From a virus (taxonomy: Duplodnaviria; Heunggongvirae; Uroviricota; Caudoviricetes), in IMG/VR virus record IMGVR_UViG_2568526100_000007: a stretch of DNA of 7,616 bases; one strand, given 5' to 3'. Position 1 is the stretch's first letter. Each line of letters begins with the position of its first letter. This document shows positions 1,322-6,019 of the stretch, one piece after another. Made by a program: the position numbers and the translations under genes. The notes under the pieces were generated by a model, which was given only the letters and a program-made list of their open reading frames with translations, did no database searches and had not been told where the DNA came from.

Positions 1322-1681
1322 ATGCTCATAGATTTGGTTTTACCTTACCCGCCGACGGTGAACACTTACTGGCGACGCCGTGGCAGCACATATTTTGTAT
1401 CAAAAGCCGGGGAGCGTTATCGCCGGGCAGTGGCGCTTATTGTTCGCCAGCAGCGGCTGAAATTAAGCCTGTCCGGAAGGCTGGCGATAAAGGTGATTGC
1501 AGAGCCACCGGATAAGCGCCGTCGTGACCTGGACAATATTCTGAAAGCACCACTGGATGCACTGACACATGCGGGGTTGCTTATCGACGACGAGCAGTTT
1601 GATGAAATCAATATTGTGCGCGGACTGCCTGTTCCTGGTGGTCGGTTGGGGATAAAAATCACAGAGCTGGAGTGCGCATGA
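1322..1681 (+). CDS. rusA: Crossover junction endodeoxyribonuclease RusA (Holliday junction resolvase), 119 aa.
   Basis: Protein MLIDLVLPYPPTVNTYWRRRG...DKRRRDLDNILKAPLDALTHAGLLIDDEQ...GGRLGIKITEL matches the recalled RusA pattern (PPS/TxN, RRRDLDN, DALT, GGRL); AAGAGG Shine-Dalgarno 5-6 nt upstream of ATG 1322; conserved position upstream of Q. Confidence 0.88.
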   Translation: MLIDLVLPYPPTVNTYWRRRGSTYFVSKAGERYRRAVALIVRQQRLKLSLSGRLAIKVIAEPPDKRRRDLDNILKAPLDALTHAGLLIDDEQFDEINIVRGLPVPGGRLGIKITELECA

Positions 1682-2367
1682 ATAACCAGTATTTACAGTT
1701 TGTTCGTGAGCAACTCATTATCGCCACCGCCGATTTGAGTGGGGCAACAAAAGGTCAGCTTGAAGCCTGGCAGGAGAATGCCATGTTTGATACAGGGCGT
1801 TACAGACGTAAAAAAATCCGGTACCGCGATAAGGTCACTGGAAAAATGGTAACGCTGGATAATCCACCGATCCCGGGAAAGCAATCGCTGGCGAAAGGTT
1901 CATCAATTGCCCTAGTCAGTCCGGTTGAGTTTTCGACATCATCATGGCGACGCGCCGTTCTGTCTCTTGAAGAGCATCAGAAGGCGTGGGTACTGTGGGT
2001 ATACAGTGAAAATCCGAGTTGGGATTATCAGGTGGTCATTGCGAAATGGGCGTGGGATAAGTTTCAGGTGCATTTTGGCACCAGAAAAATTACAGGGAAA
2101 ACGCTTGAGCGTCTGAAGAAATTAATCTGGCTGGCGGCGCAGGATGTCAGGGGGAGGATTACTGGGTGTGACGTCTACCAGCGACAGGAACTTGCCAGAC
2201 TGTGTGGAGTTAAGTCAGACAACTGGAGCCACAATTATGCGCACTACTGGCGTGATATGTGCGACATTTTTAAGAACCTCGACAACGAATCTTTGATTTA
2301 TACCATGAAAACAAGATCGCAACAAAAAGCGACCTTTTCGCGGCGGGTTATTGCAAAAGTCAATTAA
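1678..2367 (+). CDS. Phage antitermination protein Q-like (late gene regulator), 229 aa from ATG 1678; the track's alternative start is GTG 1672.
   Basis: ATG 1678 overlaps the rusA stop (ATGA at 1678-1681) with GGAG 7 nt upstream; size and position (rusA, then Q, then late region) are typical of lambdoid and Stx phages. The family call rests on synteny and general resemblance, not on a search. Confidence 0.65.
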   Translation: MNNQYLQFVREQLIIATADLSGATKGQLEAWQENAMFDTGRYRRKKIRYRDKVTGKMVTLDNPPIPGKQSLAKGSSIALVSPVEFSTSSWRRAVLSLEEHQKAWVLWVYSENPSWDYQVVIAKWAWDKFQVHFGTRKITGKTLERLKKLIWLAAQDVRGRITGCDVYQRQELARLCGVKSDNWSHNYAHYWRDMCDIFKNLDNESLIYTMKTRSQQKATFSRRVIAKVN

Positions 2368-2432: not shown

Positions 2433-2458
2433 GCCTGCTGCTGAGCGGGCTATCTTTT
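2433..2458 (+). terminator. Candidate tR'-like intrinsic terminator: stem GCCTGC / GCGGGC (one G-U pair), 6-nt loop, then TATCTTTTGT.
   Basis: Hairpin followed by a U-rich tract about 70 nt downstream of the Q stop; analogous to the pR'-tR' arrangement of lambda. Confidence 0.3.
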
Positions 2459-2639
2459 GTCGTAAGTTGAGCGAAAGACCATCGATTTTACCTTGCTAAA
2501 ACTATTCTGCTATTGCCGAGTTACCCTTTAGGTAATACACTCATCTTATAAAAGAAAGTGGTTGTTAGCCACATAGGTTAGGATGTGCGCATACTTTGTT
2601 TGTGTGCTTTTTGTGTTTTATCTGTTAACGGAGGGGAGC

Positions 2640-2867
2640 ATGCCGAAATATCTAACACTTGCCGCTCGCGCGATCCTCTCACCTGAGAAGATCATCAAAA
2701 AAATTGCAGATATAGCTTCCATGTGTGATGGAAAAGAAGCTAAGCATGAAAGTGACAAGTTTTTCATTGATAGTAATGGTTCGATGGTTTTGAATCGCAA
2801 CAACGCTGATGTGCAAAAGGCTTTCGCAGCCAATATTAAGGGATTGAGTACTAAGAAGAAGGGTTAG
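2640..2867 (+). CDS. Small basic hypothetical protein, 75 aa (cassette gene 1). Start chosen at ATG 2640 rather than the track's 2583.
   Basis: GGAGG at 2630-2634, 5 nt before ATG 2640; Lys-rich hydrophilic product (MPKYLTLAARAILSPEKIIKKIADI...STKKKG); low-GC; stop TAG 2865-2867 lies 6 nt before the next gene's ATG. Confidence 0.55.
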   Translation: MPKYLTLAARAILSPEKIIKKIADIASMCDGKEAKHESDKFFIDSNGSMVLNRNNADVQKAFAANIKGLSTKKKG

Positions 2868-2873
2868 TCTTCT

Positions 2874-3671
2874 ATGTGGGCTGCGCTGATTGTTATTGTT
2901 TTAGTTTGTGGTTATCACTATACCAACTGCCATTTGCCGTCACGATACCGTCAAAGCAAAGCGATCGGTTGGAATGCATACTTTGATGTTGCACTGAAAG
3001 GTGGTGAGTTTCTCATAAGTGGTATTCTTATCGCTGCCTTATTGGTTGTTGTTCTGTACGCTGGAATGTCACTTTGGAACATTCCAGCGTACTTGTTTGG
3101 TTGGTACGCTCCCTTTACTTTCGCCCATGACTTTCTCAAAATGCAAGTGTTTGGGTTGAGCATGTTCCCTGCTATGTCGATAGCTTTCACTATTATTGTA
3201 AGTATCGGGAAGGCATCAGAGGCAACCAAAAACCATAAAGACCCACAAAAGCGCAAGGCTATTTTTGAAGAAATTGCGGCTCATAGTGCCGTGGAAAATA
3301 TCCTTCTTGAATCAGTTGAGCGTGGATTGTTATTGTTGGTTACACTGAAGTCTCGCAAGGTCTATGTGGGGATGATTGATGAGGCACGTTTCAATCAGTT
3401 AGATACTAACACATTGGTGCTAATCCCTTTTATGTCCGGGTACAGAGATAAAGATACTCTGACTTTTTGTGTTGAGCATAATTATGTGGACTACTACCTT
3501 AGTCAGGGTATCACATTAACTTCTGAGCCATTGTCAGTTTATCAGTTTAGGCATGTGTTGCCCTTCGATCAGATCGAATCTTTTTCGCTGTTTAATGTTG
3601 AAACATTCGAGACTTTCAAGGCAGGTATTGAAGGGAAGAAGGCCACTGAAGTACAGAATCAAACAAGTTAA
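2874..3671 (+). CDS. Membrane protein of unknown function, 265 aa (cassette gene 2): about four predicted transmembrane helices in residues 1-115, then a roughly 150-aa soluble C-terminal domain.
   Basis: Hydrophobic stretches WAALIVIVLVCGY, FLISGILIAALLVVVLYAGMSLW, AYLFGWYAPFTFA and VFGLSMFPAMSIAFTIIVSIG; long ORF in AT-rich DNA, where chance ORFs are unlikely; tightly linked to gene 1; intrinsic terminator just downstream. Confidence 0.7.
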   Translation: MWAALIVIVLVCGYHYTNCHLPSRYRQSKAIGWNAYFDVALKGGEFLISGILIAALLVVVLYAGMSLWNIPAYLFGWYAPFTFAHDFLKMQVFGLSMFPAMSIAFTIIVSIGKASEATKNHKDPQKRKAIFEEIAAHSAVENILLESVERGLLLLVTLKSRKVYVGMIDEARFNQLDTNTLVLIPFMSGYRDKDTLTFCVEHNYVDYYLSQGITLTSEPLSVYQFRHVLPFDQIESFSLFNVETFETFKAGIEGKKATEVQNQTS

Positions 3672-3690
3672 GGTTGTTACCTCATTAATT

Positions 3691-3716
3691 AAACCCGCCA
3701 TTGAGCGGGTTTTTTG
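3691..3716 (+). terminator. Rho-independent terminator closing the two-gene cassette.
   Basis: Perfect 8-bp stem AAACCCGC / GCGGGTTT (3691-3698 and 3705-3712), 6-nt loop CATTGA, followed by a T-run; 20 nt after the stop at 3669-3671. Confidence 0.75.
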
Positions 3717-3833
3717 ATGCCCGAAGTGCGGTACATTAAACGCGCTGGTAGTTATTAATATCGGTCTTTCAGCTTGCTGGCTTTTTCGACAAGAGTTATT
3801 GGTATGTCACGTTAACCAGAAAAGGGAAAAGGC

Positions 3834-4031
3834 ATGCTAAAACAGCAGGATATGACCGAAACTGCCAGAGTGGTGTTTAATGAATTAAGCGTCACCGAAC
3901 CGGCGACCGTCGGGGAAATTGCGCATAATACTTACCTTTCACGCGAACGTTGCCAGTTAATACTGACCCAGCTTGTTATGGCGGGTCTGGCAGATTATCA
4001 GTTCGGTTGTTACAGACGCCTTCCTCAGTGA
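3834..4031 (+). CDS. Small hypothetical protein, 65 aa; possible winged-helix DNA-binding protein (a PapI/FaeA-like resemblance is tentative).
   Basis: ATG preceded by a purine-rich AAAAGGGAAAAGG; segment TVGEIAHNTYLSRERCQLILTQLVMAGLA resembles a helix-turn-helix recognition region; lies immediately upstream of the methyltransferase. Confidence 0.5.
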   Translation: MLKQQDMTETARVVFNELSVTEPATVGEIAHNTYLSRERCQLILTQLVMAGLADYQFGCYRRLPQ

Positions 4032-4180
4032 AGGCTTTTTTATTTGTGGTAATGGGCGGCTGGTGGGTGTTGGTAGCACCTGCCAGCCATTCGCTCATGC
4101 TTACTGGTCACAAGCGAACCACGGCCCACTGCTTTAGCGCAAAAGCAGAGTGAGCCTACCAGAGTTACGCTTACTGATCC

Positions 4181-5230
4181 ATGAAAAATACTGTAAAAAT
4201 AAACAGTGTTGATTTAATCAACGCTGATTGCCTGCATTTTATTCAGTCCCTGCCTGATGATTCCATTGACCTGATTGTTACCGATCCGCCGTATTTCAAA
4301 GTGAAACCCGAGGGCTGGGACAATCAGTGGAAGGGCGACGATGATTACCTGAAGTGGCTGGACCAGTGTCTGGCTCAGTTCTGGCGGGTGCTGAAACCTG
4401 CCGGAAGTCTTTACCTGTTCTGTGGCCATCGCCTGGCATCTGATATCGAAATCATGATGCGTGAGCGGTTTAACGTGCTGAACCATATCATCTGGGCAAA
4501 GCCGTCCGGACGCTGGAACGGGTGTAACAAGGAAAGCCTGCGGGCGTATTTTCCGGCCACAGAGCGCATTCTGTTCGCGGAACATTATCAGGGGCCGTAT
4601 CGCCCGAAAGATGATGGCTGTGAGGCGAAGGGCAGGGCACTGAAACAGCATGTGATGGCCCAGCTGATTGCTTACTTTCGTGATGCGCGCGCGGCCCTGG
4701 GGATAACGGCAAAACAGATTGCAGATGCCACAGGAAAGAAAAACATGGTGTCGCACTGGTTCAGTGCCAGTCAGTGGCAGCTACCGAACGAAAGCGATTA
4801 TCTGAAATTACAGTCGCTGTTTGCCCGGGTGGCAGAAGAGAAACATCAGCGGGGAGAACTGGAAAAGTCCCATTACCAACTGGTCAGCACATACAGTGAG
4901 CTGAACCGGCAGTATGCGGAGCTGCTGAGTGAATATAAACATCTGCGGCGGTATTTTGGCGTGACGGTGCAGGTGCCGTATACCGATGTGTGGACGCATA
5001 AACCGGTGCAGTTCTATCCCGGGAAACATCCGTGCGAAAAACCGGCAGAAATGCTGCAGCAGATAATCAGCGCGAGCAGTCGTCCTGGTGACATGGTGGC
5101 GGATTTCTTCATGGGTTCTGGCTCAACCATAAAGGCGGCTATGGCGCTTGGGCGTCGTGCAATTGGTGTTGAGCTGGAGACCGGACGTTTTGAGCAGACA
5201 GTCAGGGAAGTTCAGGATTTAATCGTTTGA
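4181..5230 (+). CDS. DNA methyltransferase, beta-class N6-adenine/N4-cytosine type (DPPY motif), 349 aa; apparently an orphan phage methylase.
   Basis: Catalytic motif IV IVTDPPYF (nt 4283-4294) near the N-terminus and SAM-binding motif I FFMGSGST near the C-terminus (nt about 5104-5127), the order typical of beta-class amino-MTases; no restriction endonuclease gene in the window. Confidence 0.85.
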   Translation: MKNTVKINSVDLINADCLHFIQSLPDDSIDLIVTDPPYFKVKPEGWDNQWKGDDDYLKWLDQCLAQFWRVLKPAGSLYLFCGHRLASDIEIMMRERFNVLNHIIWAKPSGRWNGCNKESLRAYFPATERILFAEHYQGPYRPKDDGCEAKGRALKQHVMAQLIAYFRDARAALGITAKQIADATGKKNMVSHWFSASQWQLPNESDYLKLQSLFARVAEEKHQRGELEKSHYQLVSTYSELNRQYAELLSEYKHLRRYFGVTVQVPYTDVWTHKPVQFYPGKHPCEKPAEMLQQIISASSRPGDMVADFFMGSGSTIKAAMALGRRAIGVELETGRFEQTVREVQDLIV

Positions 5231-5279
5231 AACGGATGAGATTGCAGAATTAATTACGCACCATTATTATTCTGCTCCC

Positions 5280-5355
5280 GGCCCTTTAGCTCAGTGGTGA
5301 GAGCGAGCGACTCATAATCGCCAGGTCGCTGGTTCAAATCCAGCAAGGGCCACCA
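5280..5355 (+). tRNA. ileZ: tRNA with CAU anticodon, ileX/ileZ-like (tRNA-Ile2 read via lysidine, or formally tRNA-Met), 76 nt.
   Basis: Hand-folded cloverleaf: acceptor GGCCCTT/AAGGGCC, D-stem GCTC/GAGC, anticodon loop CTCATAA, T-stem GCTGG/CCAGC, 3' ACCA; close to the recalled E. coli ileX sequence. Confidence 0.85.
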
Positions 5356-5362
5356 TCACATA

Positions 5363-5439
5363 CCGCCATTAGCTCATCAGGAAAGAGCGCCAGCCTTCGA
5401 AGCTGGCTGCGCGGGGTTCAAGTCCCCGATGGCGGTCCA
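5363..5439 (+). tRNA. argN: tRNA-Arg, anticodon UCG, 77 nt.
   Basis: Hand-folded cloverleaf: acceptor CCGCCAT/ATGGCGG, D-stem GCTC/GAGC, anticodon stem CCAGC/GCTGG with loop CTTCGAA, T-stem CGGGG/CCCCG, 3' CCA encoded. The symbol is assigned by position in the ileZ-argN-argO cluster of Stx phages. Confidence 0.85.
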
Positions 5440-5452
5440 TTATCTGCATCAT

Positions 5453-5529
5453 GCGTTGTTAGCTCAGCCGGACAGAGCAATTGCCTTCTAAGCAATCGGT
5501 CACTGGTTCGAATCCAGTACAACGCGCCA
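5453..5529 (+). tRNA. argO: tRNA-Arg, anticodon UCU, 77 nt.
   Basis: Hand-folded cloverleaf: acceptor GCGTTGT/ACAACGC, D-stem GCTC/GAGC, anticodon stem ATTGC/GCAAT with loop CTTCTAA, T-stem ACTGG/CCAGT, 3' CCA encoded. Confidence 0.85.
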
Positions 5530-5543
5530 CACTTATTTTCCCT

Positions 5544-5570
5544 GGCTCGCTTTTGCGGGCCTTTTTTTTT
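5544..5570 (+). terminator. Intrinsic terminator after the tRNA cluster.
   Basis: Stem GGCTCGC / GCGGGCC (7 bp, one G-U pair), loop TTTT, followed by nine T residues. Confidence 0.6.
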
Positions 5571-5767
5571 AAATGTCTCACAATTCAGACGGTTGACTGT
5601 TGTCTGGTTTGCGGGGAGTTTGTTAAAAGAAACTGGCATGGTGAATCCCCCTGTGCGGAGGGGCAATCAGCGAGTAGGTATATGGGATAATCGCGGATTC
5701 AGGTGCTGGTACTGAATTCACCGGGAGGCACCCGGTACCATGCAATGGCACATAGCGCCACTCTCCA

Positions 5768-5791
5768 GCCCCTCTCCGGAGGGGCTTTCTT
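5768..5791 (+). terminator. Terminator-like hairpin in the intergenic slot upstream of nanS-p.
   Basis: Perfect 7-bp stem GCCCCTC / GAGGGGC with loop TCCG, followed by TTTCTT. Confidence 0.4.
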
Positions 5792-5797
5792 GTGGGC

Positions 5798-5826
5798 AAA
5801 AAAAGCCCGCGCTGGGAGACGCGGGC
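5798..5826 (-). terminator. Minus-strand terminator-like hairpin.
   Basis: Seven A residues (a T-run on the minus strand) adjacent to a 7-bp stem GCCCGCG / CGCGGGC with an 8-nt loop; together with 5768-5791 it forms a back-to-back hairpin pair. Confidence 0.3.
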
Positions 5827-6019
5827 GGCAAGGAATAAACAATAAAACGTGAAGTAATATTTCAGCTGGCGAATAATATCCGACAGTAATCACTCTGCGC
5901 AATAGCGCGGCCTTTTTCGTATTGCGGGCTGTTGTCTCTCTTCTGCCATTGTCCTGTAACTTCCGGACTTCAGCCCGCTCCTCATTTTACTCACAATATT
6001 ATCCCGGCCGGGAGGATTC

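Follow-up and report, generated by a model that had tools for sequence, protein, structure and literature searches.

The window, a 7,616-nucleotide (nt) stretch of the virus record IMGVR_UViG_2568526100_000007 (IMG/VR), is by gene content and order the late-regulatory part of a lambdoid prophage, and the element in question is its 490-nt interval between argO, the last of three tRNA genes, and nanS-p, which encodes a prophage sialate O-acetylesterase. The prophage is a stx-negative lambdoid relative of the Stx-converting phages, with a slot where an earlier note on this DNA had placed the toxin genes stxA and stxB. Very probably, the interval is made up of the terminator of the tRNA cluster, a cargo point, an Hfq-binding-type small RNA (sRNA) of the STnc100 family on the plus strand, and a convergent second sRNA on the minus strand, followed by nanS-p. 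This architecture is already known: it is the moron site with a convergent sRNA pair described by Tree et al. (2014; PMC4104026), here in its common cargo-free state.

The last tRNA ends at 5529 and the ATG of nanS-p occupies 6020-6022, so that the interval, 5530-6019, measures exactly 490 nt. On its left side, argO is followed by an intrinsic terminator on the plus strand (5544-5570), consisting of a 7-bp GC-rich stem (5544-5561) and a T9 run (5562-5570) and recognised both by pattern scan and by folding (-13.8 kcal/mol, z = -4.3); Stx2 phages keep this terminator directly upstream of the stx2 cassette. When the window is compared by blastn with two of these, the Stx2a phage L001 (of the LC567834 type) and Sakai Sp5, a 1,335-bp stx2AB cassette replaces only six nucleotides, TTTAAA at 5568-5573: window 5185-5567 corresponds to L001 3955-4338 and window 5574-5788 to L001 5674-5912, with identical boundaries in Sp5. 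The left homology ends six T's into the tail of the argO terminator, and the right homology restarts at 5574, in a conserved flank on the plus strand (5574-5606) that opens with the motif TCACAATTCAG..GTTGAC and is probably the 5' end or the promoter region of the sRNA that follows; the motif is conserved 3' of stx2B, stx1B and tciB as well as at empty sites. The slot is bordered on the left by the T-run that ends the tRNA terminator and on the right by the conserved 5' flank with which the sRNA module opens. The 5-nt sequence ATCTG, present at both ends of the stx2 cassette, is treated as chance.

As judged from these alignments, which the earlier note had proposed as a means of placing stxAB, the stx slot proper covers only the six bases 5568-5573, not the whole 490 nt; the accompanying search for a deletion scar or remnant was negative. 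The view that the entire interval is vacant has therefore to be given up, since 5574-6019 is mostly also present 3' of stxB in Stx phages and, on the evidence below, very probably encodes the convergent sRNA pair. In many Stx2a phages, the spacer from stx2B to nanS-p aligns with 98% of this segment at 85% identity, and VT1-Sakai aligns with 85% of its length, from 5636 on, at 89% identity. The breakpoint (5566/5567) recurs in phage and E. coli matches, where the matches to a junction-spanning probe split at probe position 114/115, and the slot has other fillers: tciA/tciB in JLK-2012 and PPyecE_EH1910, a DUF3927 gene in two E. coli prophages, and an IS66 element with a TerB gene in one further E. 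coli prophage. The potential to accept cargo that the earlier note saw in this site is borne out by stx2, TciA/TciB, DUF3927 genes and IS elements at one breakpoint.

The plus-strand sRNA gene (5607-5797), a relative of EcOnc05, EcOnc27 and PasD, ends in its own terminator (5767-5786, with a T-rich tail) and matches the STnc100 family (Rfam RF02076) over the full model (1-206), with 134.3 bits against a gathering threshold of 47 (E 2.7e-31). In its minimum-energy fold, the internal hairpins typical of the family are present, as is the long closing helix (GCAUGGU/ACCAUGC); it also has the terminator in common with STnc100/PasD, and differs in being 191 nt long against a consensus of 206 nt, owing to a shorter variable internal loop. 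In all 13 other loci where the scan called STnc100, it is placed between the cargo and a nanS-p homologue. This agrees with published placements of STnc100/EcOnc27/sRNA103 just 3' of stx2B (PMC12711010, PMC12370729) and with a preprint that describes STnc100 and PasD as related and PasD2 as adjoining a sialic acid esterase gene, as in the window, while warning that some variants can be assigned to either STnc100 or PasD (Zhu, Shabalina & Storz 2026, bioRxiv 10.64898/2026.05.13.724894). By analogy with the Northern size of the Sp4 homologue EcOnc05 (~222 nt), the 5' end of this sRNA may lie near 5576, approximately at the module boundary.

The STnc100 gene of the window is 98-99% identical to other empty-site alleles (Nil3, Nord58, PhiR49_2), as opposed to 69-77% to stx2-linked ones. 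Between prophages the gene is 69-79% identical, against 93-100% for the flanking DNA (window compared with L001, L009, L010 and L197); the divergence lies mostly in the internal variable loop and the 5' part, and alleles sort by the presence of stx2 next door. Two tandem STnc100 copies (3562-3755 and 4031-4219) occur in a prophage of E. coli MRSN346595, followed 3' by an iraM-like pseudogene with an ISApl1 insertion and a truncated DUF1737 gene, a degenerate locus.

The partner of this sRNA is a minus-strand unit of the EcOnc08/21/42 type (5798-5902), recognised by its terminator, its promoter layout and its homology to the Sp4 region. Its terminator (5826->5805) has seven GC pairs out of eight, followed by U7, and stands back to back with the plus-strand terminator (5767-5786), about 20 nt away; such a strong minus-strand terminator directly 3' of STnc100 means that two transcription units converge at this point. 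Upstream, a -35 element TTGCGC (5902->5897) is separated by an 18-nt spacer from a -10 element TATTAT (5878->5873), a layout that would start an RNA near 5866. A longer form of ~271 nt would start near 6070 and would thus be antisense to the ribosome-binding site and start codon of nanS-p. The segment 5798-6019 is 95-98% identical among phages that share no more than 76-79% identity in their STnc100 genes.

In other phages the same minus-strand position is taken by AgvB (in the Stx1a phage L004 and in PPyecE_EH1910) or by AsxR (in Sakai Sp5, where it abuts STnc100). The unit in the window lies where these two (RF02702, RF02703) lie and is oriented as they are, converging on STnc100 ahead of nanS-p; it also shares with them the promoter layout TTGCGC-N18-TAnnnT, which is conserved across alleles, and a strong terminator with a U-run at the end. 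It differs in its transcribed body, from which the conserved 42-nt 3' region (GUAUCUCAUGC..UUGCCCGAACCCA.UCGGGC) is absent, and in its -10 element, which is TATTAT where the AgvB type (AgvB/EcOnc03) has TAAAAT. No AgvB or AsxR Rfam match was obtained in window 5400-6150 even at E up to 5, and membership in these families was rejected on account of this and of the differing body sequence. Among 70 distinct alleles (the window, 49 empty-site and 20 stx2-linked) from 134 IMG/VR contigs, TATTAT pairs with the window-type body in most alleles and TAAAAT with the AgvB/AsxR body; both body types are found beside empty and beside stx2-occupied slots. For the Sakai homologues EcOnc08/21/42, only Hfq binding and size have been published (PMC4104026). 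The minus-strand RNA (~5800-5866, in its long form to ~6070) can be regarded, tentatively, as an uncharacterised cassette that stands in for AgvB or AsxR at their position; it could represent a third kind of anti-sRNA or sponge among phages, with its own target, or could act in cis in the lysogen, as an antisense brake on nanS-p.

The published framework for such a pair is that the region 3' of the Q-antiterminated PR' tolerates moron insertions, and that in Sakai prophages Sp3, 4, 5, 9, 10, 11, 15 and 17 moron coding sequences (CDSs) 3' of PR' are followed by convergent sRNAs and a conserved open reading frame (ORF), as exemplified by stx2B / EcOnc27 / AsxR in Sp5 (PMC4104026). The window has the same arrangement, both in the place of the interval between Q/PR' and the conserved ORF, here nanS-p, and in the two opposite-strand sRNA genes lying back to back with Rho-independent terminators. 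Sakai Sp4 carries ileZ1-argN1-argO1, a gap of 489 nt, and then ECs_1088; window 5263-6175 aligns with it at 95.4% identity with two gaps, the tRNA trio is the same, the gap measures 489 nt against 490 nt, both loci lack stx, and in both STnc100 is matched at an equal offset, with a nanS-p homologue following. The two differ in their Q proteins and upstream of the tRNAs, where Sp4 has a CAAX protease-like gene and an AraC-type regulator and the window has ORFs of 94 and 265 amino acids (aa) and a methylase.

Hfq-CRAC peaks and Northern sizes have been reported for EcOnc05 (plus strand, ~222 nt) and for EcOnc08/21/42 (minus strand, ~271 nt), EcOnc42 being the Sp15 homologue (PMC4104026). Transferred via Sp4, the peaks listed in Table S2 of that study fall on window 5668-5776 (EcOnc05, inside STnc100), 5800-5872 (EcOnc08) and 5878-5963 (EcOnc21). 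The coordinates of Table S2 refer to NC_002695.1, which at Sp5 is offset by about +135 from NC_002695.2, as measured via AsxR (1268629-1268681 in NC_002695.2, 1268494-1268542 in NC_002695.1); mapping the table onto the current RefSeq requires an offset correction.

The relationship to Stx phages extends over both flanks. The order Q, methylase, ileZ-argN-argO-like tRNAs, nanS-p, which the earlier note had given for these phages, is found in the annotated Stx2a phage LC567834 (Q, a 66-aa ORF, methylase, the same three tRNAs, stx2A, stx2B, nanS-p homologue), and Sakai Sp5 likewise has Q, the same three tRNAs, stx2A, stx2B and a nanS-p homologue; in both, stx2A and stx2B lie between argO and the nanS-p homologue, where the note had them. 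The window follows this late-region synteny at flank identities of 92-100%: the tRNAs and their terminator are 92-100% identical to those of Stx2a phages, and over the last 222 nt ahead of nanS-p identity is 95% with an Oslovirus-type Stx2a phage and 97.7% with VT1-Sakai. In the Stx2 loci of the Sp5/933W type and of Oslovirus-type Stx2a phages, methylase or Q, the three tRNAs and their terminator are likewise followed by an sRNA pair and nanS-p; their argO is 98.7-100% identical to that of the window, whereas their STnc100 allele reaches only 69-77%. Between EcOnc27/STnc100 and nanS-p, these loci have AsxR or an EcOnc08-type sRNA; the minus-strand partner is AsxR in Sakai Sp5, and an iraM-like gene takes this place in the LC567834-type phage L001.

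By whole-window coverage, the foremost phage records are the stx-negative prophage PPyecE_EH1910 and many Stx2a phages. Among 5,426 complete E. coli genomes, the best full-window match is 95.4% over the full length, in Nord58 and seven others, all of the same layout; no IMG/VR contig matched the full window, the best reaching 97.7% over 5.5 kb. The closest relatives, which are these eight E. coli prophages (~95% over the full length), phage Nil3, PhiR49_2 and Sakai Sp4, are all stx-free at the junction. The earlier note had held that closest homologues never carrying stx here would speak against it; this is so of the closest, but more distant homologues do carry stx at the junction, and because of these the claim of a stx-negative relative of Stx phages stands, with both flanks homologous and stx absent. 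It may be added that nanS-p is known in non-Stx prophages too (PMC10462455).

Neither stxA nor stxB is present within the 7.6-kb window. A tblastn search with Stx1A/B and Stx2A/B returned no match in the interval and, over the whole window, none better than E 0.5, and blastn with the stx1 and stx2 cassettes gave a sole chance match of 16 nt, outside the interval. The description of the interval as some 490 bp with hairpins and with no ORF of toxin size was accurate: its longest ORFs, on both strands, are of 40-82 aa, and 5500-6300 holds five terminator-like sites, against 1.0 +/- 0.9 in shuffled sequence. The absence of a convincingly sized ORF, together with the earlier note having seen only hairpins, would fit a non-functional and genuinely vacant spacer in which the hairpins are incidental. 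Such a spacer would, however, have to contain by accident a full-length Rfam STnc100 match of 134 bits, five terminator-like sites where one is expected, a segment (5798-6019) conserved at 95-98% amid far more diverged neighbouring sequence, and a counterpart, the 95%-identical Sakai Sp4 interval, from which Hfq-bound transcripts are known; we regard it as very improbable. Also very improbable is that small proteins are encoded here, whether by a 43-aa ORF on the minus strand (5890-6021) or by short CDSs such as the records of phi296 and JLK-2012 show. Hypothetical proteins of 34-64 aa are annotated here in some phage records, and the 43-aa ORF is intact in several homologues; but only 30 aa of it are left in Nord58, the closest relative, a frameshift disrupts it in PhiR5_1, its ATG is the reverse complement of the nanS-p start region, and a CDS over STnc100 is flagged by RefSeq as an incomplete pseudogene. 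The small-protein reading was rejected because of the truncation and frameshift of this ORF in close relatives. Small hypothetical CDSs or a pseudogene are annotated on the minus strand across the sRNA pair in phi296 (5374-5804), JLK-2012 (5223-5339) and Nord58 (8625-8750); these public CDSs are probably mis-annotated sRNA genes.

The earlier note had further left it between a toxin operon that was lost and one that was never gained. The empty junction, probed with 248 nt (window 5453-5700), is intact at 97-100% identity in 1,038 of the 5,426 complete E. coli genomes, about one in five, in O157:H7, avian pathogenic E. coli (APEC) and commensal backgrounds, and the stx2-occupied junction, probed with argO-stx2A, in 599; exact junction patterns in IMG/VR found 116 empty and 60 stx2-occupied contigs. 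Phage records with the empty junction are Nil3 (99.2%; from a bovine O157:H7), PhiR49_2 and vB_EcoS-611R1. A one-genome-per-species scan, made with exact patterns only, found no copy of the empty junction, and an exact-pattern scan with a 28-nt STnc100 core found four loci, in Escherichia ruysiae, an Enterobacter and one E. coli. When each empty IMG/VR site is paired with its best occupied one, identity reaches at most 97.7% in the left flank (median 93.8%), 83.7% in the sRNA (median 76.4%) and 94.4% in the right flank (median 76.1%), as against ~100% for best matches within each state; no empty site among the 116 has a near-identical flank in any of the 60 occupied ones.

That the prophage is a recent derivative of a Stx2 (or Stx1) phage which lost its toxin operon by precise deletion, leaving the interval as a scar, is improbable when these figures are set beside the points that suggest it. 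Both flanks are homologous to Stx phages, the difference is a clean indel of exactly the cassette size (1,335 bp), and many Stx2a phages stand near the top by whole-window coverage among phage records. However, the STnc100 allele is 69-77% identical to stx2-linked ones but 98-99% to those of other empty sites; the closest occupied counterparts of empty sites in IMG/VR reach no more than 83.7% for the sRNA and 94.4% for the right flank; and the search for stx remnants was negative at both protein and DNA level. Moreover, the identical junction is shared by 1,038 genomes of diverse kinds, among them O157:H7 strains with Stx phages elsewhere in the genome, a distribution that fits an inherited or recombining haplotype better than many independent deletions. 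Since no sRNA allele beside an empty site exceeds 84% identity with one beside an occupied site, a recent stx deletion appears unlikely, and the empty state fits a common, stable and widely shared haplotype that exchanges modules by recombination. Of the two possibilities left by the earlier note, the stx-negative state is thus retained and a recent loss is not favored.

Several points weigh against the picture of a cargo-free moron site with two sRNAs, or limit it. The proposed minus-strand -35 element has only three of six consensus matches, and a simple sigma-70 promoter scan returned no promoter for either sRNA; its sole match (6026->5998, minus strand) would yield an RNA of ~190 nt, which is unlike either published size. 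PR' was not located in the window. Transcription of both sRNAs in this prophage is taken from the 95%-identical Sakai homologue and is to that extent presumed, and the mapping of the Hfq peaks assumes a coordinate shift of zero at Sp4, which rests only on the peaks then falling on sRNA 3' ends. The IMG/VR samples were drawn by exact patterns of 33-35 nt and are biased toward particular alleles, and the data would fit an ancient loss of stx as well as a site that was never occupied.

In the reading preferred here, the region comprises, in order, Q with a terminator behind it, cargo genes together with a methylase, the three tRNAs for rare codons, a second terminator, the moron point, two convergent sRNAs, nanS-p and the lysis genes. 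On the basis of general lambdoid biology and of Tree et al. (2014), its working may be pictured as follows. In the lysogen, each sRNA would be transcribed from a promoter of its own and would work via Hfq; upon induction, Q-modified RNA polymerase from PR' would pass the terminators behind Q, behind argO and of the sRNAs, and this read-through would lead to expression of nanS-p and the lysis genes. Any cargo in the slot would be expressed by the same read-through, which is how stx2 is expressed in Stx2 phages. Cargo would most likely enter and leave through homologous recombination between the conserved flanking modules, which would explain the recurrent breakpoint.

For typing, it follows that Q, the methylase, ileZ-argN-argO and nanS-p, although they flank stx, do not identify a Stx phage: among complete E. 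coli genomes, 1,038 have the toxin-free junction and 599 the stx2-occupied one, a ratio of nearly two to one, and O157:H7 strains are among those with the toxin-free junction. As the empty junction is so common, a short PCR product from argO to nanS-p, such as the earlier note had suggested, is uninformative on the loss of stx. In annotation, the "intergenic" 490 nt should read as two sRNA genes and a terminator, where several public records place spurious small CDSs. As to cargo potential, the site is a long-recognised moron site, and its recovery here confirms the earlier intuition and adds nothing new.

In the remainder of the window, a DUF968 protein (314-1309) and RusA (1322-1681) precede the late-gene antiterminator Q (1672-2367, plus strand; Pfam PF06323 Phage_antiter_Q, E 1.5e-83), of which a 95%-identical homologue is annotated in RefSeq as 'bacteriophage antitermination protein Q'. 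Just 3' of Q, a terminator-like hairpin (2432-2451) with a T-rich tail, found by pattern scan, makes up a candidate tR' of the late operon on the plus strand (2432-2460), at the position of the annotated tR' in Nil3 and VT1-Sakai. Further on lie a 65-aa ORF (3834-4031) and a DNA N6/N4 methyltransferase gene (4181-5230, plus strand; Pfam PF01555, E 6e-43), which is likewise placed in the Stx2a phage LC567834. The three tRNA genes, all on the plus strand and called by ARAGORN and Rfam, are a tRNA with CAT anticodon of the ileZ type, tRNA-Ile2 (5280-5355; 72.5 bits, tRNA-Ile / ileZ in RefSeq and Sakai), a tRNA-Arg (TCG) of the argN type (5363-5439; so annotated in RefSeq and Sakai) and a tRNA-Arg (TCT) of the argO type (5453-5529; likewise so annotated), the last 100% identical to argO of L001; they read the rare codons AUA, CGA/CGG and AGA/AGG. 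At the right end, nanS-p (6020-7616, plus strand) is represented by its 5' 532 codons, the C-terminus lying beyond the window; it combines, by Pfam, an N-terminal DUF1737 (PF08410, E 3e-16) with the catalytic SASA domain (PF03629, E 1e-12), as defines the group, and a DUF6645, and its homologues are annotated yjhS, SASA family esterase or NanS.

Between Q with its terminator and the 65-aa ORF, an insert (2440-3720) encodes two plus-strand proteins, of 94 aa (2583-2867) and 265 aa (2874-3671), the latter with a hydrophobic N-terminal half. Neither ORF could be assigned to a family: they had no match in Pfam, NCBIfam, PADLOC or PDB, only phrog_3630, whose function is not assigned. At DNA level the insert has no match in 50,697 phage records and is absent at the same position in a Stx2a phage. 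Its GC content is ~0.40-0.43, against ~0.52 in the flanks, and it occurs in only 14 of the 5,426 complete E. coli genomes, 13 times at an identity of at least 99% and once at 95-99%, while the surrounding prophage is at ~95%. This two-gene insert is the real, rare cargo of the prophage, carried in the first moron site and not in the stx slot.

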